Origin: Actinomycetes bacterium
Lineage (GTDB): Bacteria > Actinomycetota > Acidimicrobiia > Acidimicrobiales > JAMCPL01
Reading direction: 5' to 3'
DNA: 64,000 nt
Assembly: GCA_021816935.1 (NCBI GenBank)
Contig: JAKAWR010000005.1
Coordinates: 10,256-74,255, forward strand
Shown here: positions 7,943-62,226 of the stretch, piece after piece
How positions within the stretch are numbered: the first letter of the stretch is position 1
How the letters are laid out: the number at the start of each line of letters is the position of its first letter
Made by a program: the position numbers and the translations under genes
The notes under the pieces: generated by a model
Database searches by the model: none
What the model was told of the DNA's origin: nothing
Seen by the model: only the letters and a program-made list of their open reading frames with translations

Positions 7943-8974
7943 ATGCCGAGCCTCGTGGCGGCTGAAGGGCTGATGATCGACCTCCACCTGCATTCGCGCT
8001 TTTCGGATGGTTCCGAGGAGCCCGAGCGCGTGGTCGAACTCGCGGCCGAGGCAGGCTGTTCCGCCATTGCGCTTACCGATCACGATACCCTCGCGGGCAT
8101 ATCGAGGGCGCAATCCAGAGCCTCAGAGCTGGGGGTCGGCTTCGTATCAGGATGTGAGATCACGTGCAATTTCCCGCTGGGCGCTCTCAGCGTGGGGCCG
8201 CCGGCCGTAGAGGCAGCGATAGCGGCGACTCCTGTCGCGAGAATGCAGCCCGCGTACCCGACGATCGAACACTGCAGGGCGAGCAACGTCCACGTCCTTG
8301 CCTACTTCGTCGCTCCGGACTGCCGCCTGGCCGGGGAGCTCGTGAGTATCCTTTCTTCGCGGACCACTCGCAACCTGGAGCTCGTCGACAGGCTGGACTC
8401 TTTGGGAGTCCCGGTGCCCTACGACGACGTTCTCGAAGAGGCGGGAGGTTCCGAGAGTGTAGGCCGGCCGCATTTCGCTGCGGTCATGGCGAGAAGGGGG
8501 TATGTCGCAGACATTGACGAAGCGTTCGACAGGTGGCTCGGAGCGGGACGGCCAGCCTATGTACCTCGCAGGACACTCGGTTGTGATGAGTTGGCGCTGA
8601 TCGCCAGGGAGTCTGCAGTGGTGCTGTCGCTTGCACACCCCTTGCGCTACGGGTTCGGCCGGACCGAGCTCGAGGCCCTTGTTGGGTATCTTGCGGATAC
8701 GGGCTTTGCGGCCCTGGAAGCGGTCTACTCGGCGCATTCACCCGCGGAACAGGCCTTTGTGGAGGCGTTGGCTGCGAGGTATTCCATGGTCGTGACCGGC
8801 GGCTCCGACTTCCACGGAACCTACAAGGAGGGGATATCCCCGGGCACGGGGACGGGAGGGCTGGAAGCCCCCGATACGATCCTGGCCAACCTGGTGCGCC
8901 TTCGGGACGGGTTGCAGCCCCCGACGGAGGGGGTCTCTCCGGTGATCGTGCCCTCTTCGCCAGATGGGGGCTGA
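7943..8974 (+). CDS. PHP-domain metal-dependent phosphoesterase (TrpH/YciV-like)
   Basis: Motifs IDLHLHSRFSDGS, ALTDHDT and GGSDFHG. The real start may be the Met of MIDLHLHS at 7973. Confidence 0.8.
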   Translation: MPSLVAAEGLMIDLHLHSRFSDGSEEPERVVELAAEAGCSAIALTDHDTLAGISRAQSRASELGVGFVSGCEITCNFPLGALSVGPPAVEAAIAATPVARMQPAYPTIEHCRASNVHVLAYFVAPDCRLAGELVSILSSRTTRNLELVDRLDSLGVPVPYDDVLEEAGGSESVGRPHFAAVMARRGYVADIDEAFDRWLGAGRPAYVPRRTLGCDELALIARESAVVLSLAHPLRYGFGRTELEALVGYLADTGFAALEAVYSAHSPAEQAFVEALAARYSMVVTGGSDFHGTYKEGISPGTGTGGLEAPDTILANLVRLRDGLQPPTEGVSPVIVPSSPDGG

Positions 8975-41118: not shown

Positions 41119-41252
41119 GTCTATCCGACCTCCTTCGTCTTTCCCGGTTCGCCGTCCCTACGACTGCCCGGCCGTACCGGGCCTACCATAGTGCCCACCG
41201 GCAGTGCCACGCAGTTTGAAGCCATGCCAGCGGGTCAGGCTGTGCCGGGTAA

Positions 41253-41420
41253 TAAGAGGCTCAGCGGATAGGGATGCCGGGCTCGCCGGCCCCCAGACGT
41301 CGCATCGCGGCGTTGTTGTCGTCGCCCAGGCACTCCAGCCTGGGCTTCCTCCTCCGCCTTGCGCTACTCGCCTGGATGACCGGCTCCCTTCTCCAACCTC
41401 CCTATCCGCTGAGCCTCTAA
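41253..41420. mobile_element. MITE-like non-autonomous element, copy B (complete, 168 bp)
   Basis: Terminal inverted repeats TAAGAGGCTCAGCGGATAGGGA (41253-41274) and TCCCTATCCGCTGAGCCTCTAA (41399-41420) match at 21/22 positions. TAA flanks both sides of the GAGGCTC...GAGCCTC core. There is no ORF inside. An extra partial end, CCTCAGCGGAT at 41422-41432, forms a 10-bp hairpin with the right repeat. Confidence 0.65.
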
Positions 41421-41431
41421 GCCTCAGCGGA

Positions 41432-42982
41432 TCAGGCCGTCGTGCGATCCCACGTTTGCGTGGTGACACCGCGATCCTTCAGTTCCTGGTACCGGACCCG
41501 GTGGGTCGGGGTCTTGGGTATTTCCGCCATGATCTCGATGTAGCGGGGTACCGCATATCGCGCGACTCGACCCTCGAGGAAGGAACCCAGCTCGACAGGA
41601 TCCACGCTTTCGCCGGGTTTCTCCACTACGCAGAGCTTCACCTCGTCCTCACCGAGCTCGGAGGGGACGGCGTGGGCGGCCGATTCCAGGACCTTCGGGT
41701 GCTGGTTGGCTACGGTTTCTATCTCCCATGCCGATATGTTCTCGCCGAGGCGCCTGATCGACTCCTTCTTACGGCCTTTGTAGTAGTAAAAGCCCTCAAC
41801 GTCACGCGCCGCCAAGTCACCGGTGTGGAACCAGCCATCGCGCCAGGCGCTTTCGGTCGCCTCGGGCAGGTTGTGGTACTCGCTGAGCTGCCCGGCGGGG
41901 TGCTTGAAGACCACCTCGCCAACCTCGTCCGAACCGAGCAACTCGCCACCATCCGACATGACGGCGAACTCGCATTCGCCGATCGGCCTGCCCATGGAAC
42001 CGACTCTTCCGCTGTCGTTCAGGAGCAGGCCGGGTGCGTCTACGAGACCGTAGAACTCGACCAGCTTCACGCCGAAACGCTCTTCGAACTCCACCCAGCG
42101 CTCAGCGGGGCATCCGGCCGAGAGGACCACTCTCACGGGATTGTCCCTGTCGTCGTCGCGCGGAGGCTGTTTGAGAAGGATCGTGATCATACCGCCTAGA
42201 GCGTTGAACTCGACGGCGCCGTACTTTCTCGTCTCGTCGAAGAGCCTCGAAGCGCTGAATCGGCGACCCAGGGCCAACCTCGCGTCGAGTACCATCGAGC
42301 CCGTTGTGGAGATGAGGAGTGCGTTCCCGTGAAAGAGGGGAAGGGCAGTATAGATAGTCTCACCCGGCTGGATGCCCAGAGAAGAGATAAGCGGGAGAAA
42401 GCCGCTCGCCCCCGCGGCTGCTCCTTTCTGTACAACGCCCTTTGGTGGTCCCGTGGTCCCCGACGTGTAGAGCATTGCCGCACCGGTCGGAGCCTCGGTC
42501 ACGTCGATCGAGGGTTCGCGGTCATCCCCATCGAGCAGGTGGTCGAAATCCGTTTCGAAGCCGTCTCCCGCTTTCCCTCCCACGACGACGGCATGGGCGA
42601 GCCCCGCAGCTTCCTTCCGGACGGCCGAGACGACGTCGCGCAGTTCGTCGTCCACGATGGCGCAGGCGGCTCCAGAGTCGGCGAGGATGTGGCTGAGCGC
42701 CGGCCCACGCTGGGAAATGTTGACCGGTACAGTGGACGCTCCTATGAAGCCGGCGGCAAAGTGTGCCCAAAGGAACTCGGGCTTGTTGCCCATCATCAGG
42801 GCGATCCGATCACCGGGCCGTATCCCGAGTCCCAGCAACCCGTTCGCCACCCTTTGGATTGCCGAGAGCGCTGTGGCCCACGAGACCTCCTCGTCCTCCC
42901 ACAGGAGCCAGGTTGAGTCGGGGTGCTCGGCCGCTCTCGAACGGATCAGCAGCTCAAAGATGCCTTGTGCCCGATCGGTCAT
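41432..42982 (-). CDS. AMP-dependent acyl-CoA synthetase/ligase
   Basis: AMP-binding motif MLYTSGTTGPPKGV plus WFHTGDLA. I place the start at the ATG giving MTDRAQGIFELL (42982). The track ORF extends to 43420 through an Arg/Ser-rich non-homologous stretch. Confidence 0.85.
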   Translation of the reverse strand: MTDRAQGIFELLIRSRAAEHPDSTWLLWEDEEVSWATALSAIQRVANGLLGLGIRPGDRIALMMGNKPEFLWAHFAAGFIGASTVPVNISQRGPALSHILADSGAACAIVDDELRDVVSAVRKEAAGLAHAVVVGGKAGDGFETDFDHLLDGDDREPSIDVTEAPTGAAMLYTSGTTGPPKGVVQKGAAAGASGFLPLISSLGIQPGETIYTALPLFHGNALLISTTGSMVLDARLALGRRFSASRLFDETRKYGAVEFNALGGMITILLKQPPRDDDRDNPVRVVLSAGCPAERWVEFEERFGVKLVEFYGLVDAPGLLLNDSGRVGSMGRPIGECEFAVMSDGGELLGSDEVGEVVFKHPAGQLSEYHNLPEATESAWRDGWFHTGDLAARDVEGFYYYKGRKKESIRRLGENISAWEIETVANQHPKVLESAAHAVPSELGEDEVKLCVVEKPGESVDPVELGSFLEGRVARYAVPRYIEIMAEIPKTPTHRVRYQELKDRGVTTQTWDRTTA

Positions 42983-56724: not shown

Positions 56725-58277
56725 CGGAGTATCCTTTGCAGAGCGCCGATTCCGGTAACGGTAATCCGGTCGTCGTGATCGGTGCCGGGCCGGCCGGCCT
56801 GACGGCCGCGTACGAGCTTGGCAAGCGGGGCCGGGGTGCCGTCGTCCTGGAGTCAGACGGTGTTGTGGGTGGTCTTTCGAGGACTGTCGTGAGCGACGGA
56901 TGGCGCTTCGATCTCGGCGGGCACCGCTTCTTTACCAAGGTTCCGGCGGTCGAGGCTCTCTGGCGGGAGATCCTCCCAGGCGGGGATTTCGTCACCAGGC
57001 GGCGTATGAGCCGTATCTACTACGAGGGCAGGTTCTACGATTACCCCCTGAAGGCTGCAAATGTCTTGGCCAACCTCGGTCCACTGGAGGCGGCCAGATG
57101 CGTGGCGTCCTATGCGTGGGCGAAGGTGCATCCGCCGGGCGATCTCGATTCGTTCGAGGGCTGGGTGGCGGCGCGCTTCGGCAGGCGCCTCTACGGCAAA
57201 TTCTTCAAGGACTATACCGAGAAGGTGTGGGGGGTCCCCGCTACTTCGATCGGCGCGGACTGGGCAGCCCAGAGGATCAGGAACCTGTCGCTCGGAAGAG
57301 CAGCGGTGCGGGCGCTCCTACCAGGGTTAAGGGATCGGCGTGACGTGGCAAGCCTCATCGAGACCTTCGAGTACCCGCGGCTCGGACCGGGGATGATGTG
57401 GGAGGCGTGCGCACGCAGGATCACGGCGATGGGGGGAAGGATCCTGCTTGGGAGCCCCGTTGAGCGCGTGGCCTGTGAAGCCGGCCGCCTGAGGTCGGTC
57501 GTCTACCGGACCCGGCGGGGGCACGCCGAGATCGCGGCGCCGGCCCTGATCTCCTCGATGCCGCTTGGCGAGCTCGCGCGGGCACTCGATCCTTCGCCGC
57601 CCGAGAACGTGCTCCAGGCGGCAGGATCGCTTTCGTACAGGGCTCATCTGACGGTGGCACTCGTGGTCCCGTCCGGCGCCGGCTTCCCGGACAACTGGAT
57701 CTACGTCCACGATCCCAGGGTCAAGGTGGGGCGCATCCAGAACTTCGGCTCGTGGTCTCCCTGGATGGTCAGGGATGGCCAGACCTGCCTCGGTATGGAG
57801 TATTTCCTTTTCGAGGGGGACGATCTGTGGCGGGACAGCGATGCGGATCTCGTCGAGATGGCGATAGGCGAGCTTCGCATGATCGGACTAGCCGGGAGCG
57901 CTGATGTCGAGTCAGGTTATGCCGTCCGCATGGCCAAGGCTTATCCCGTGTACGACGAGGCCTACGCCGATGCGGTCGATTCAATTCGGGACTGGATAGA
58001 GCGGCATGCCGCCGGCGTCCATCCCGTCGGGCGCAACGGCATGCATAGGTACAACAACCAGGATCACTCCATGCTTACTGCGATGCTGGCGGTGGAGAAC
58101 ATAGTGGATGGCACCTGCCACGACATCTGGTCGGTCAATGTGGAGGCGGAATACCTCGAGGAGCACCGGGCCGGGGGCGTATGCTGTAGTGGGGCCACGG
58201 CTGGTGCCAACGGATCGAGCATGCGGGAAGCGGGTGAAACGGGCCGCGCGGCACCGGTCGTTCGCCTGCGGGCATGA
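56721..58277 (+). CDS. FAD-dependent oxidoreductase (amine-oxidase / UDP-galactopyranose-mutase-like)
   Basis: Dinucleotide motif VVVIGAGPAGLTAAYEL, VLESDGVVGGLSRT, and FDLGGHRFF. The GTG start overlaps the GT4 stop (GTGA). Confidence 0.78.
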   Translation: MTEYPLQSADSGNGNPVVVIGAGPAGLTAAYELGKRGRGAVVLESDGVVGGLSRTVVSDGWRFDLGGHRFFTKVPAVEALWREILPGGDFVTRRRMSRIYYEGRFYDYPLKAANVLANLGPLEAARCVASYAWAKVHPPGDLDSFEGWVAARFGRRLYGKFFKDYTEKVWGVPATSIGADWAAQRIRNLSLGRAAVRALLPGLRDRRDVASLIETFEYPRLGPGMMWEACARRITAMGGRILLGSPVERVACEAGRLRSVVYRTRRGHAEIAAPALISSMPLGELARALDPSPPENVLQAAGSLSYRAHLTVALVVPSGAGFPDNWIYVHDPRVKVGRIQNFGSWSPWMVRDGQTCLGMEYFLFEGDDLWRDSDADLVEMAIGELRMIGLAGSADVESGYAVRMAKAYPVYDEAYADAVDSIRDWIERHAAGVHPVGRNGMHRYNNQDHSMLTAMLAVENIVDGTCHDIWSVNVEAEYLEEHRAGGVCCSGATAGANGSSMREAGETGRAAPVVRLRA

Positions 58278-58480
58278 ACCCTGGGGGACTGCTGTCGCCG
58301 GCCGCCCGGATCGCCAGTCTCATTATCAGGCATTTCTATACCAGCATACTTTTACGCCATGGCCTCTGACCTGCATAACTACATGTATGTCATTTCTTAT
58401 GTGTTAGCCGTTATCACCCGTAGAAGGCACGTTTGTAGGCACGACATATCGTGATGCAATGTTATGTTGCGATGCCAAGA

Positions 58481-58540
58481 CGGGACGTGGCGGGACGGTG
58501 CGGGACGGGACGTGGCGGCGCGGGACGGGGGGAGACGGAG
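58481..58540. repeat. degenerate 10-bp tandem repeat CGGGACGKKG
   Basis: cgggacgtgg cgggacggtg cgggacggga cgtggcggcg cgggacgggg, immediately after an AT-rich stretch (58320-58470). Confidence 0.7.
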
Positions 58541-58704
58541 GTACAAGCGGGGCACCGGGTGCTCCTGGCGTCCTTGTGCCCGTGTGCCGTGGCAGGGGCC
58601 AGGGGTGGACCTGGCGGGCCGAGCGGGCCTGGGGTGCCCGGGATTCGTCAGACGTGCCAGTCATCCGCCGTCGCAGACCAGATCCCCGTCGGCCCCGGGG
58701 GGTG

Positions 58705-58933
58705 CCCTAGCATCACGCAACGTCACGTGACGCAATATCGCTCCGAGCAGGGCGAACGTCACGTGCGCCGATTGGGGCGTCATATGCGTGACGTACTATC
58801 GCAACACGACCAACAATAACGTCACGTGACGCACCAGCGCCCTTACCAGAGACAACGTCACGTGCCAACGCTCTGAGTAGGGCGAACGTCACGGCCGTCA
58901 CAGAACTATCGTAACACGACCAGAAACCCTAGG
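58705..58933. promoter_or_regulatory. array of CGTCACGTGACG palindromes / CGTCA half-sites (candidate protein-binding array)
   Basis: Perfect 12-bp palindromes at 58721-58732 and 58820-58831. Related sites at 58757, 58778-58793, 58856 and 58887-58901. All sit within an imperfect ~100-130 bp direct duplication flanked by CCCTAG. Confidence 0.55.
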
Positions 58934-58954
58934 TGCATCGGTGGCGACCGCCTG

Positions 58955-59131
58955 ACCCACTCTCCCCTCCCCAACCTCTCACCCCCTCCCCAAACCTCTC
59001 TTTTGCTCTCTCTTTCCCTACCCCAACCTCTCTCTTCCACCCAACCTCTCACACCTCCCCACCACCCTCCTTACCACCCTCCTTACCACACCTCTCCCTA
59101 CCACCCACCTACCACCTACCACCTACCCTTC
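58955..59131 (+). repeat. 177-nt C/T/A-only (virtually G-free) low-complexity tract
   Basis: There is a single G (59005) in 177 nt. Internal sub-repeats are CCAACCTCTC, CACCCTCCTTAC x2 and CACCTAC x3. The complementary strand is G-rich and C-free. Confidence 0.9.
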
Positions 59132-59386
59132 GATATTCGATTTCCAGTAATGATCCCCCCCAACGTTATTGTGGTTGTATCGCAGTGCACGTGAGAACGC
59201 CGGACACCTGCGCTGCCTGATGCGCGCTTGGAATGGTGGGCGGGAGCGGTCGGGGCGGGAGCGGTCGGGCGATCGCTCGTCGGTGGTCGTGGTGGCTCCC
59301 CCGCAGGGGCTCTCGCTCATACATGTCGACTACTGACGCGGCTAGTGCTTGGCCGTATCGGTCCGCGGCCACCAACTACAAATCGT

Positions 59387-59422
59387 TTGCATTAATTGCC
59401 GTGGCGTGCTACACTGACGTCA
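59387..59422 (+). promoter_or_regulatory. candidate promoter plus TGACGTCA palindrome upstream of the surface-protein gene
   Basis: TTGCAT (59387-59392), a 17-nt spacer, TACACT (59410-59415), then TGACGTCA (59415-59422), followed by GCGCAAGGGAC x2 (59430-59451). Confidence 0.45.
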
Positions 59423-59556
59423 TCTTGGCGCGCAAGGGACGCGCAAGGGACGGTTGCAGATGGCTAGATCGTCTAGGTAAGTCATACGGTTGGATACCGA
59501 GGAGCGCAACGGGGAAGGAACCGGGTTGCCGGCCTCCAGAGGGGTGCGGGCGGTCA

Positions 59557-61197
59557 GTGCAAGTGTGCTCGCACTTCTCATGTTCATCGACGCTCGGACT
59601 CGTGCTGGCAACAGGCGCGCCTGCCTCGGCTTCCACGCCGGTACTCCCGGTACTGAACTGGACCCAGGTTTGTACGAGCTCCTGTACGAGCCCTCCCGCC
59701 CGCGACCTCGCCACCATGGCCTATGACCCGGCAACGGGGAACATGGTGCTCTTCGGGGGCGACGGCAGCAGCGGCTACCTCGCCGACACCTGGAGTTTCT
59801 ATCAGGTAGTAGTCCCACCTTCTAAGCCCACACAAAGCCCGCCATCTGTGACAGCCGGATCGGTAACTGTGAACTGGACGGCCCTATCGCTCGACGGCGG
59901 ATCTCCAATCACCGGATATGACGTCTACATGAGCACATCATCCGGCGGTGAGAACTACGGCGGATCTCCCGCCTGCACAGGGGGAGCCTCGGCAACGAGC
60001 TGTAGCGTGTCAGGGCTTACGAACGGCACCACCTACTACTTCACGGTAGAGGCGACAAACGCGGCCGGAAGCTCCTCTCCTTCGAACGAGGAGCAGGCAA
60101 CCCCTGTGAACCCCCCGCCTGCACCTGCCCCACCGGTTGTCTCCTCTGTGGCGCCTTCTTCCGGGCCCGAGCAGGGCGGCACCTCTGTCGTGATCACCGG
60201 TACGAACTTCACCTCGGGGGCAACTGTGGACTTCGGAACTTCTGGAGCAACAGATGTGGCGGTCGTCTCTGCTACGAAGATCACGGCCACCTCGCCTGGC
60301 GGAACTGGAGTGGTAGACGTGACCGTAACAACTGGTGCCGGCACCTCTGCCAAGTCCCGAGCAGACGACTTCAGCTACCAAAGCCCTCCCGTCATACCTC
60401 CTGGATCGCTCTACACTGCGGTTTCTCCAGCAAGGATATGTGACACGAGACCAGCTAACCCCTCGAACCTCTCTGGGCCAGCCTCCCAGTGCAACGGCCA
60501 CACCCTATCTCCGGGCACGCCCCTTTCTGTCCAAGTGGCAGGTGCCGGCCCGGTACCTTCAACCGGTGTGTCAGCGGTGGTGCTTGCCGTAACCGCCACG
60601 GGGTTCTCTTCGGCCGGCTACCTCAGCGTCTATCCAGCCGGAGGACCAGCACCGATTGCGTCCAACCTGAACTTCTACCCAGGTAAGGACGATGTCGGAA
60701 ATACGGTGGTGGTCCCCCTCGGTGGGAAAGGAGCCGTCTACCTCGTCTCCAATGCGGCTACAGACGTCGTTCTCGACGTGGTCGGCTACTACTCTTCGTC
60801 TGGTCCTGGAAGCCGTTTTAGCGCCGAGGCTTCCCCGGTTCGCATATGTGACACGAGACCAGCTAACCCCTCGAACCTCTCTGGTACCGCCTCCCAGTGC
60901 AACGGAGCCACCATGGGGAAAGGATCGGAGATGACCGTCTCTGTGGCCGGGCTTGCTGGTGTTCCCATGACCGCTACAGCGGTTGTTGTAAACGTGACAG
61001 CAATACCAACCCAAGGACCGGGCTACCTCACGATCTGGCCGGGCGGCACGAGGCCCACGGTATCGAACCTCAGCTGGGACACCGGCCAAATCGTGGCAGA
61101 GACCACCGTGGCCACCTTGGCCACATCGGGCACGATCACCATCTACGCGTCCGCCTCGACAGATGTCATCGTCGACGTAGAGGGCTGGTACTCCTGA
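59557..61197 (+). CDS. secreted multidomain surface protein (Kelch-like motif, FN3, IPT/TIG, two copies of an uncharacterised beta domain)
   Basis: Hydrophobic TLGLVLATGAPASAS; Kelch-like MAYDPATGNMVLFGGDG...DTWSF; FN3 (VTVNWTA...ITGYDVY...TYYFTVEATNAAG); IPT (GGTSVVITGTNFTSGATVDFG). These are followed by two repeats starting RICDTRPANPSNLSG.ASQCNG and ending DV..GYYS/GWYS. The start is uncertain: the track ORF begins at 59233 inside the non-coding island. Confidence 0.75.
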   Translation: MQVCSHFSCSSTLGLVLATGAPASASTPVLPVLNWTQVCTSSCTSPPARDLATMAYDPATGNMVLFGGDGSSGYLADTWSFYQVVVPPSKPTQSPPSVTAGSVTVNWTALSLDGGSPITGYDVYMSTSSGGENYGGSPACTGGASATSCSVSGLTNGTTYYFTVEATNAAGSSSPSNEEQATPVNPPPAPAPPVVSSVAPSSGPEQGGTSVVITGTNFTSGATVDFGTSGATDVAVVSATKITATSPGGTGVVDVTVTTGAGTSAKSRADDFSYQSPPVIPPGSLYTAVSPARICDTRPANPSNLSGPASQCNGHTLSPGTPLSVQVAGAGPVPSTGVSAVVLAVTATGFSSAGYLSVYPAGGPAPIASNLNFYPGKDDVGNTVVVPLGGKGAVYLVSNAATDVVLDVVGYYSSSGPGSRFSAEASPVRICDTRPANPSNLSGTASQCNGATMGKGSEMTVSVAGLAGVPMTATAVVVNVTAIPTQGPGYLTIWPGGTRPTVSNLSWDTGQIVAETTVATLATSGTITIYASASTDVIVDVEGWYS

Positions 61198-61497: not shown

Positions 61498-62226
61498 ATG
61501 ACGATGGCGATGAACGCACACGACATGATCACGGCTATGAGGGCCGATCCGGCGCTCGCCGAGGAGATGCGCGCGGTCGTACTCGACGAGGAGTTGCGCA
61601 GCCTGCCCGAGATCGTAAGGAATCTTGCCGTCCAGGTCGCTGCGAACACGAAGGCTATTGCCGAGCTGACCGTCCAGGTCGCTGCGAACACGAAGGCTAT
61701 TGCCGAGCTGACCGTCCAGGTCGCTGCGAACACGAAGGCTATTGCCGAGCTTGTAGAGGTGACGAAGCTACACGGTATGCGTCTGGACAGAATAGACGGC
61801 CGGATCTCGAACTTGATGGGTTGGCGCTACGAGGAGCAGGTGGACAAGCAGCTCCGGGCGATTATGGGCCGGGTAGGTCCGGGGTTCAGACGTGTTGCTC
61901 CCTCGGACAGGAACGAGTTTGCCGACCGGATGGATGAGGCCGTGGAGGCGGGGCGGGTGAGTGCTGACGAGGCCGGCGCAGTGCTGGAGGCCAACTCCGT
62001 TGCGACTGCGCAGGCGAAAGACGACGGCCGCGAGGTGTACCTGGTCGTGGAATCGTCGATCACTGTGGCCCAGGATGACGTGGAGCGAGCCCGGACTCGA
62101 GCCGCCATCATCGCTCAGGCGCTCGATGTGGATACGAAGGCCGTTGTCGTCGGCTCGATCCTGCCCGATGGCGTGGACTACGGCGGTGTGTTGCCGGTGC
62201 GTTTCACGGGCAAGCATATAGCCTGA
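61498..62226 (+). CDS. coiled-coil protein with C-terminal domain resembling a degenerate PD-(D/E)xK-like fold family
   Basis: Strong RBS (GGAGG 7 nt upstream). The N-terminus has VQVAANTKAIAELT x3. The C-terminal DGREVYLVVESSITVAQDDVERARTRAAIIAQAL resembles a widespread actinobacterial/cyanobacterial hypothetical family as I remember it. Confidence 0.7.
   Translation: MTMAMNAHDMITAMRADPALAEEMRAVVLDEELRSLPEIVRNLAVQVAANTKAIAELTVQVAANTKAIAELTVQVAANTKAIAELVEVTKLHGMRLDRIDGRISNLMGWRYEEQVDKQLRAIMGRVGPGFRRVAPSDRNEFADRMDEAVEAGRVSADEAGAVLEANSVATAQAKDDGREVYLVVESSITVAQDDVERARTRAAIIAQALDVDTKAVVVGSILPDGVDYGGVLPVRFTGKHIA
61630..61751. repeat. perfect 42-bp tandem repeat x ~2.9
   Basis: GTCCAGGTCGCTGCGAACACGAAGGCTATTGCCGAGCTGACC at 61630-61671 and 61672-61713 (identical), with a third copy that diverges after ~38 nt. 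Confidence 0.92.

Follow-up and report, generated by a model that had tools for sequence, protein, structure and literature searches.

A near-G-free, structure-free tract beside sps-type boxes in an Acidimicrobiales-like actinobacterium: possible arm of an orphan iteron- or origin-like module, or of its relic

According to our analysis, positions 58955 to 59131 of the plus strand of contig JAKAWR010000005.1 as studied here (a stretch of 64,000 nucleotides [nt], hereafter the window) form a 177-nt tract almost devoid of G, which lies in a noncoding gap of ~1.26 kb, 55 to 65 nt downstream of an array of CGTCACGTG boxes. The organism is a high-GC mine-drainage actinobacterium, and the best relatives of the genes flanking the gap belong to metagenome-assembled genomes of Acidimicrobiales, at 55 to 66% identity. 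The upstream cluster on the plus strand encodes an NAD synthase, a UDP-glucose dehydrogenase, a glycosyltransferase, and an FAD oxidoreductase, the last of which ends at 58277; a carboxyltransferase gene is also among the neighbors. The downstream gene, likewise on the plus strand, encodes a surface-type protein with fn3/TIG domains. The tract starts 678 nt past the upstream stop codon, and the region from 58150 to 59600 lacks codon periodicity. A preliminary description of this DNA had reported the tract itself but had seen neither the repeated module to which it belongs nor the adjoining box array of the sps-type initiator/SpdA kind. The features of the gap are as follows.

58317 to 58467, no strand assigned: most AT-rich segment of the window, with a GC fraction of 0.38 to 0.42 versus 0.644, the lowest at the 60-, 100-, and 150-nt scales
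58479 to 58538, plus strand: G-rich tandem repeat, GGGACGG-like, with a 5/10/15-nt period and a skew opposite to that of the tract
58633 to 58691, no strand assigned: short interspersed repeat, with similar copies in other flanks on other contigs
58705 to 59180, plus strand: repeated module of ~480 bp, consisting of the box array, a conserved stretch of 70 nt, the G-free tract, and a conserved AT-rich stretch of 50 nt
58719 to 58922, plus strand: tandem duplication of ~100 nt with four ACGTCACGTG boxes and two copies of ACTATCGYAACACGACCA
58721 to 58732, no strand assigned: exact 12-bp palindrome CGTCACGTGACG ("sps")
58820 to 58831, no strand assigned: second exact CGTCACGTGACG palindrome
58884 to 58954, plus strand: conserved stretch at the left of the tract, with 93% identity to another copy of the module (copy A, below)
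58887 to 58901, plus strand: degenerate double box CGTCACGGCCGTCAC, near-identical to GAACGTCACGGACCGTCAC in the box array of a viral locus (L148, below)
58955 to 59131, plus strand: G-free, C-rich tract of degenerate sub-repeats with no predicted structure
59132 to 59180, plus strand: conserved AT-rich right flank, including ACGTTATTGT, an inverted repeat of 58813 to 58822
59188 to 59195, minus strand: further CACGTG box (GCACGTGA), inverted relative to TCACGTGC at the left

The tract contains 104 C (59%), 41 T, 31 A, and a single G, at 59005, which divides it into two G-free runs of 50 and 126 nt; the G residues at 58954 and 59132 are its borders. With G making up 32.7% of the window, finding no more than one G among 177 nt has a probability of ~3e-29 per position, and outside the tract the window reaches 24 nt in its next G-free run and 27 nt in its longest C-free run, so that the earlier statement that such asymmetry exceeds chance is borne out. 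At least two diverged, G-free copies of the tract exist (below). In 1.34 Mb of related actinobacterial loci, high-GC DNA contained no G-free or C-free run of at least 35 nt. Since A occurs at the genomic frequency (17.5% versus 17.0%), we describe the tract, with a G+C content of 59% compared with 64.4% for the window, as DNA in which G is replaced by C and some T, that is, G excluded and C enriched, and not as the polypyrimidine tract that it had been called, which counts against H-DNA. The sub-repeats named in the preliminary description are present, and the tract as a whole is built of degenerate units of 7 to 18 nt, which form several families with at most three to four copies each: CCAACCTCTC occurs in three exact copies and one with a single mismatch, the 12-nt unit ACCACCCTCCTT in ~4.5 copies with indels, and the 7-nt unit CCACCTA in 3.3 copies.

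The tract, with its interior and both borders, is matched without a single difference, and at the depth of the flanks, by Logan unitigs that stem from mine-drainage and sediment metagenome runs of three studies. Since these unitigs from independent runs match exactly, at flank depth, an assembly artifact is ruled out and the near-G-free tract is real; the window's copy is moreover identical across all runs, contrary to the suspected variability of tract length. The one extreme physical property of the tract is its predicted lack of structure, as either strand, as RNA or as DNA, is predicted to fold with 0 to −0.8 kcal/mol, compared with a minimum free energy of −67.7 ± 8.7 kcal/mol (range, −101 to −42) for random 177-nt windows of the same sequence. 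In the literature on natural G-free tracts, the synthetic G-less cassette alone turned up, and we found no description of a natural bacterial tract of this kind. For the flanking proteins, no relatives above ~66% identity were found, identical proteins for genes of the window were not on record, and the tract was present in none of the loci of distant homologues. A metagenome scan for two copies of CCAACCTCTC together with 40 non-G positions returned 56 unrelated minisatellites, largely from low- to mid-GC DNA, and the present locus was not among them.

When the contigs of four runs were placed on the region at 80% likeness, at least two further, diverged versions of the module were identified besides the window's copy, which are ~82 to 90% identical to it and differ by indels. 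Homology extends from ~58705 to ~59180, beyond which the unitigs of other copies run into unlike sequence; these outer limits were stitched from unitigs each covering only part of the module. Copy A parallels 58802 to 59071 with 43 substitutions and 6 gap letters, and it shares identical nodes with the window's copy at 58748 to 58831 and at 59041 to 59071, while copy B is homologous over 58928 to 59070 (15 substitutions, 3 gap letters) and has a different upstream sequence. At position 58779, within the first of these nodes, the sole unitig of run X1 that covers it reads A where the window reads G. The depths of the window's copy and of copy A-type unitigs were 40 and 47 in run X1, 8 and 9 in run X2, 3.2 and 5.6 in run X4, and 3.5 and 3.4 in run X6. 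Since this ratio is near 1:1 across samples and studies, paralogues in one genome fit better than co-occurring strains, and at least three copies of the module are apparently present in one genome.

Over the tract, G is absent from the 121 nt of copy A and from the 119 nt of copy B, and where the window's copy has its lone G59005, copy A has T and copy B has A. At most 1 of the ~19 substitutions in the tract involves G, compared with 2 of 5 in the 70-nt left flank (P ~0.03 at an expected 25%). The right half of the tract, made of CCTACCA repeats, is found in the window's copy alone. A stretch of 84 nt is identical between copies, which suggests recent duplication or gene conversion, and conservation therefore carries little information. 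Another copy has an extra 35-nt box unit inserted between 58734 and 58739, so that the number of boxes differs between copies. As regards the hallmarks of miniature inverted-repeat transposable elements, there is a 10-nt inverted repeat (58813 to 58822 and 59163 to 59172), no duplication is visible at the module ends, and the copies number at least three.

The box array comprises four ACGTCACGTG sites, at 58720, 58756, 58819, and 58855, all within 145 bp, while 0.12 occurrences of such a 10-mer would be expected in the whole window. They are spaced 36, 63, and 36 nt apart, each distance being a multiple of 3, which we take to be the trace of a former reading frame. Two of the four boxes, at 58721 and 58820, are exact copies of CGTCACGTGACG and identical to the sps of Streptomyces plasmids, where the motif consists of a 12-bp palindrome in one to three repeats, as it does here. 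The small protein SpdA binds the sps site, which is conserved on many Streptomyces conjugative plasmids (Thoma et al. 2014, PMC4170104); the site sits in or beside spdA, has been reported on these plasmids only, and is said to be rare on chromosomes, and no role of spdA/sps in replication or copy number was found (PMC4170104). In pIJ101, CGTCACGTGACG lies at 8140 and 8173, 33 nt apart, and we detected no exact 12-mer in the 1.34 Mb of related chromosomal loci.

Scanning IMG/VR for two boxes within 10 to 40 nt of each other, we identified paired boxes in 33 viral contigs, with ~1 expected by chance according to a rough estimate from the information content of the pattern and the size of the collection. 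The viral boxes lie within open reading frames (ORFs), where they are read as SRD, VTR/VTRD, or NVT repeats, and in these ORFs of actinobacterial phages a basic stretch of the AERxKRYRERK type (e.g., AERQKRYRERK) is directly followed by the boxes, of the form CGTCACGTG(ACG), and then by a slippage-prone, low-complexity linker, which provides the AT-richest or the most strand-asymmetric DNA of the locus. The linkers of L175 and L164 consist of (CCAAAA)n coding for Asn-Gln repeats, those of L153 and L156 have a CT-rich strand whose other strand codes for Glu/Lys, and in L148 the boxes are closely followed by a C-rich run of 40 nt without G that codes for Pro/Ser/Leu and is similar in style to the present tract. 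Seven of the eight box ORFs tested match PHROG families (replication initiation protein, replication initiation O-like, DnaD-like helicase loader, and primosomal protein), and two of those tested match DUF1376. Of the 31 high-GC contigs, 11 have the longest G-free or C-free run of their locus at most 100 nt from the boxes (Fisher combined P of 1.5e-5, which is optimistic since several viral loci are related to one another), and the lowest-GC 40-mer within 150 nt of the viral boxes belongs, at the median, to the lowest 0.7% of its locus. We found no earlier description of sps boxes inside phage initiator genes.

A self-contained cassette recurs in the loci L143 to L175 (e.g., L175, 1042 to 1833; L164, 7368 to 8135; L156, 7445 to 8629; L148, 1544 to 2692) as well as in pIJ101 (L142, 7973 to 8482): the basic stretch, AERxKRYRERK in the phage initiators and RQRAYEARRQRE in SpdA2, is immediately followed by CGTCACGTGACG boxes in the same ORF. 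This arrangement suggests binding of sps by the basic stretch, and binding of the protein to its own coding sequence.

Starting from the anatomy of the module, its copies, the identity of its boxes, and their gene context in viruses, all of which are directly observed, we tentatively deem the tract to be the slippage-expanded, low-complexity, structure-free arm of an orphan iteron- or origin-like module (or of the relic of one) of mobile-element descent, the reading that we favor, with somewhat less than an even chance. The elements of the locus seem to follow the same order as those of the viral loci, with the AT-richest DNA (58317 to 58467) 250 nt to the left of the array, the boxes, the low-complexity tract, and, at its right end, an AT-rich conserved flank; the 60-mer at 59121 to 59180 ranks third in the window for AT content. 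Translated in the frame that gives TSRD at the boxes, the tract yields a Pro/Ser/Leu/Thr-rich stretch like the phage linkers, and this frame, together with the box spacings in threes, points to descent from a phage initiator-type gene. According to the proposed mechanism, slippage of short G-free units during replication would have enlarged the tract, an initiator encoded elsewhere (in a prophage, a plasmid, or an incoming phage) would bind the box array, and the DNA flanking the boxes would serve as the opening and loading zone, where the exclusion of G would keep both strands unfolded once the duplex opens, an effect that AT-richness alone does not provide in a high-GC genome. Initiator binding at this locus, unwinding, and any present activity we infer; alternatively, the module may be the remnant of such an origin. 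Iteron- or origin-type modules and their relics are a known kind of element, and what is new here is the G-less arm, the orphan multicopy state, and the host. It is quite unlikely, in our view, that the modules are chromosomal orphan origins on which initiators from phages or plasmids of actinobacteria act in trans, the modules being either origins of noncoding satellite replicons or natural decoys that titrate the initiator of an incoming phage; within such a device, the lack of G would take the place, at high GC, of an AT-rich unwinding element, precluding intrastrand G:C pairing on either strand.

Several observations weigh against an origin-like module. The tie to phage origins consists of motif and architecture, and extended homology was not found: local alignment of the module with L148 returned a 20-nt box match alone, which is not significant, viral scans with conserved flank words of the module gave no match, and tblastn of 59 box-containing viral ORFs against the locus gave compositional matches only. 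That the in-gene arrays of the phages act as origins is itself suggested by analogy with lambda and not by demonstration, and the combined P value for the viral loci is optimistic, as stated above. The spdA gene that always accompanies sps on the Streptomyces plasmids (117 to 163 amino acids, with a conserved N-terminal DNA-binding part) was not found: tblastn of the window with SpdA2 of pIJ101 returned low-complexity noise, and neither a CxxC...YCxxxCRxxAY or ERxxxYRxRK motif in any frame of the window nor an initiator- or SpdA-like domain in any frame of 58101 to 59600 (six-frame PHROG and Pfam searches) could be detected. There are no plasmid or phage genes nearby (no rep, traB, or spd), and the neighbors are ordinary chromosomal genes. 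With a G+C content of 59%, the tract is no AT-rich unwinding element, and its asymmetry may be a by-product of slippage because the corresponding stretch in the phages is a coding linker of either polarity. Selection against G in the tract is suggested by the substitution pattern among the copies, for which the evidence is modest.

The same descent without any present role is proposed by the alternative that the gap is decayed mobile-element DNA and the tract a functionless, cryptically simple relic, which slippage would have extended from a seed free of G (perhaps a stretch coding for a Pro/Ser/Leu-rich linker) and which has not yet acquired G. We regard this alternative as possible, albeit rather doubtful. 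It is consistent with the degenerate sub-repeats of several unit families, with the indels and the divergence of 10 to 17% between copies, with the stops in all frames and the lack of any domain remnant, and with the frequent occurrence of similar G-free minisatellites in other metagenome contigs; moreover, the copies may be young, given the 84-nt identity, and their conservation is then little informative. However, despite several unit families, all three known copies are G-free while their flanks change G normally (P ~0.03), perfect palindromes have been kept, and the gap is long for a compact genome. A different role is assigned to the tract if it is a Rho loading (rut) site, where rightward transcripts, started at a promoter in the gap or continuing out of the upstream operon, would expose 177 nt of unstructured, C-rich, G-free RNA, Rho would bind it, and termination would occur ahead of the surface-protein gene, as an insulator or attenuator. 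RhoTermPredict searches for a 78-nt window with a C/G ratio above 1 and C spaced every 11 to 13 nt (PMC6407284), and a rut site would also have a pause site at most 150 nt downstream and Rho-dependent 3' ends. With all neighboring genes on the plus strand, the C-rich sequence is that of the sense RNA. C recurs every 11 to 13 nt in all 78-nt windows of the tract, in agreement with that program, and the 78-nt C/G ratio reaches 48, compared with at most 3.3 elsewhere on the plus strand; in Escherichia coli, a ratio of at least 3 is seen in only 37 of ~4500 validated predictions (PMC6407284). The RNA is predicted to be unpaired, the region is noncoding, GC-rich hairpins are predicted 45 to 160 nt downstream (~59176 to 59224 and 59268 to 59290), intrinsic terminator-like sites are not enriched in the window (33 versus ~30 expected), and actinobacterial Rho prefers poly(C) (PMC4167861). 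Nevertheless, we consider Rho loading unlikely, since the tract starts as far as 678 nt beyond the upstream stop codon, its pyrimidine-C (YC) dimers number 77 versus the 84.5 expected from composition, and the box array, the module copies, and the association of boxes with low-complexity DNA in viruses would be left unexplained.

The functions put forward in the preliminary description can be judged against 2000 shuffles of the tract's own composition. It had been suggested that the tract forms non-B DNA, namely, a G-quadruplex (G4) on the minus strand, an i-motif on the plus strand, or H-DNA, and thereby acts as a barrier or recombination hotspot near the surface-protein gene. The recommended G4Hunter check did place the strongest score of the window in the tract (−2.48), but absolute scores of 2.0 to 2.3 are reached elsewhere in the window, and although one G4 motif with loops of at most 12 nt lies at 58960 to 58990, such motifs are depleted overall (5 versus 16.8 expected), as are those with loops of at most 7 nt (0 versus 8.7). 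Runs of at least three C are not enriched (14 versus 14.8) and differ between copies, and the longest pure pyrimidine run measures 14 nt versus 19 expected, with A, as noted, at the genomic frequency; a non-B structure is thus very improbable. As for a transcribed sponge or small RNA, in which CCUCC would pair with Shine-Dalgarno (SD) sequences or a GGAGG/GGA-rich minus-strand RNA would bind ribosomes or CsrA-like proteins, the tract does carry five CCTCC motifs and, on the other strand, two AAGGAGG motifs, and the repeat-borne ACCTC/CACCT is mildly enriched (18 versus 9.5, P = 0.03). The supposed anti-SD mimics are nevertheless at chance (CCTCC, 5 versus 4.7), GGA motifs, counted as TCC, are depleted (9 versus 14), and there is no Rfam family, promoter or terminator call, or fold signal in the gap, so that we deem such an RNA extremely improbable. 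Since none of them exceeds the shuffle expectation, the G4, i-motif, H-DNA, anti-SD, and GGA features appear as by-products of composition. The preliminary description was correct in not regarding the tract as coding. Although one ORF is open across the tract, and the TSRD frame of the boxes continues Pro/Ser/Leu-rich like the linkers of phage initiators, a Pro-rich protein from ORF 58933 to 59220 or 59003 to 59194 is hardly credible: codon periodicity is missing, none of the tract's codons includes a G in a genome with a G+C content at third codon positions of ~0.77, other copies carry indels of +1, +2, and −1 nt, stops lie between boxes and tract, and neither the families searched nor the protein database, screened with six-frame translations of the tract, gave a match.

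As for the remainder of the gap, no Rfam family was found in it, no promoter or terminator consensus stands out, and BLAST of the whole gap against plasmids and phages returned a single, trivial 36-nt match. RNA folding z-scores are near 0, except in the palindrome array (−1.97), and this organism is hardly represented in the metatranscriptomes of the same study. In one frame, the G-rich repeat at 58479 to 58538 (GACGGGACGTGGCGGGACGG...) gives RD-x3-4 repeats, with three to four residues after each RD (WRDGAGRDVAARDGG), recalling the RD-rich repeats of phage initiators. A segment of 40 to 59 nt from the interspersed repeat at 58633 to 58691 is present on several contigs with unrelated flanks, at ~88 to 93% identity, and one contig copy is ~11-fold deeper (632 versus 56). 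At 59238 to 59267, we observed a perfect 15-nt tandem, GGGCGGGAGCGGTCG twice; the same metagenomes carry near-identical pieces of 32 nt in at least three further contexts.

The start of the fn3/TIG gene (59490 to 59650) seems to be frameshifted, as one frame reads ...VRAVSASVLALLMFIDA and the frame of the long ORF reads LGLVLATGAPASA|STP, and the two frames joined would give one normal signal peptide; the gene could be a pseudogene, the sequence could contain an error common to all runs, or the start could be a different one. Farther downstream, ORF 61498 to 62226 contains, at 61628 to 61753, three 42-nt tandem repeats (100%, 100%, and 95% identical) coding for the 14-residue unit TKAIAELTVQVAAN in a protein without a Pfam match. 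A 69-nt direct repeat with 90% identity, which holds the second-longest G-free run of the window (24 nt), is found at 65 to 133, in the methyltransferase ORF 13 to 930, and, 41 kb apart, at 41350 to 41418, in ORF 41204 to 42199.

If the tract does belong to an iteron- or origin-like module, the sps palindrome would be a widespread box in the replication initiator genes of high-GC phages, beyond a curiosity of Streptomyces plasmids, and G exclusion would have a physical rationale, namely, single strands that cannot fold where ordinary DNA folds with about −68 kcal/mol per 177 nt; chromosomal orphan origins, as satellites or antiphage decoys, would then be possible. If it is a relic only, it still marks decayed mobile-element DNA and advises caution against reading G4 or anti-SD function into an effect of base composition.

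Among the known systems with which the locus can be compared, simple-sequence or variable-number tandem-repeat tracts made by slippage, exemplified by the neisserial opa CTCTT repeats, resemble it in having short units rich in pyrimidines, in lying between genes ahead of one for a surface protein, and in showing indels between copies, whereas here the units are degenerate, the window's copy is invariant across runs, and the tract lies neither in a promoter spacer nor in a reading frame. Like rut sites, the tract offers at least 78 nt of C-rich, G-poor sense RNA, predicted to be unstructured, with regular C spacing, but it is far more extreme than natural ones and belongs to a repeated module with candidate protein-binding boxes. 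With the SpdA/sps plasmids, the locus has in common the identical 12-bp CGTCACGTGACG in two to three repeats at a spacing of ~33 to 36 nt, while in contrast to them the window is devoid of an spdA homologue and of plasmid genes and the host is Acidimicrobiales-like and not Streptomyces; pIJ101, in turn, has no strand-asymmetric tract (longest run, 17 nt). In the phage-encoded resistance (Per) of lactococci, an engineered situation, iteron arrays are cloned as decoys of phage origins, and the present origin-type sites without an initiator could likewise titrate a phage replication protein. In phage lambda, the origin, made of iterons and an adjacent, easily opened AT-rich segment of ~40 nt, is situated within the initiator gene O, in the part that encodes the linker. 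Unlike the lambda origin, the present array has no surrounding initiator gene, and its neighboring segment is G-free, C-rich, of 59% G+C, 177 nt long compared with ~40, and present in at least three diverged copies. As in lambda, an array of initiator-type boxes (at least three; here four ACGTCACGTG and CGTCACGGCCGTCAC) is followed by low-complexity DNA, and in the viral contigs the same boxes separate the N-terminal from the C-terminal part of ORFs assigned to PHROG replication initiation families, including the O-like family.

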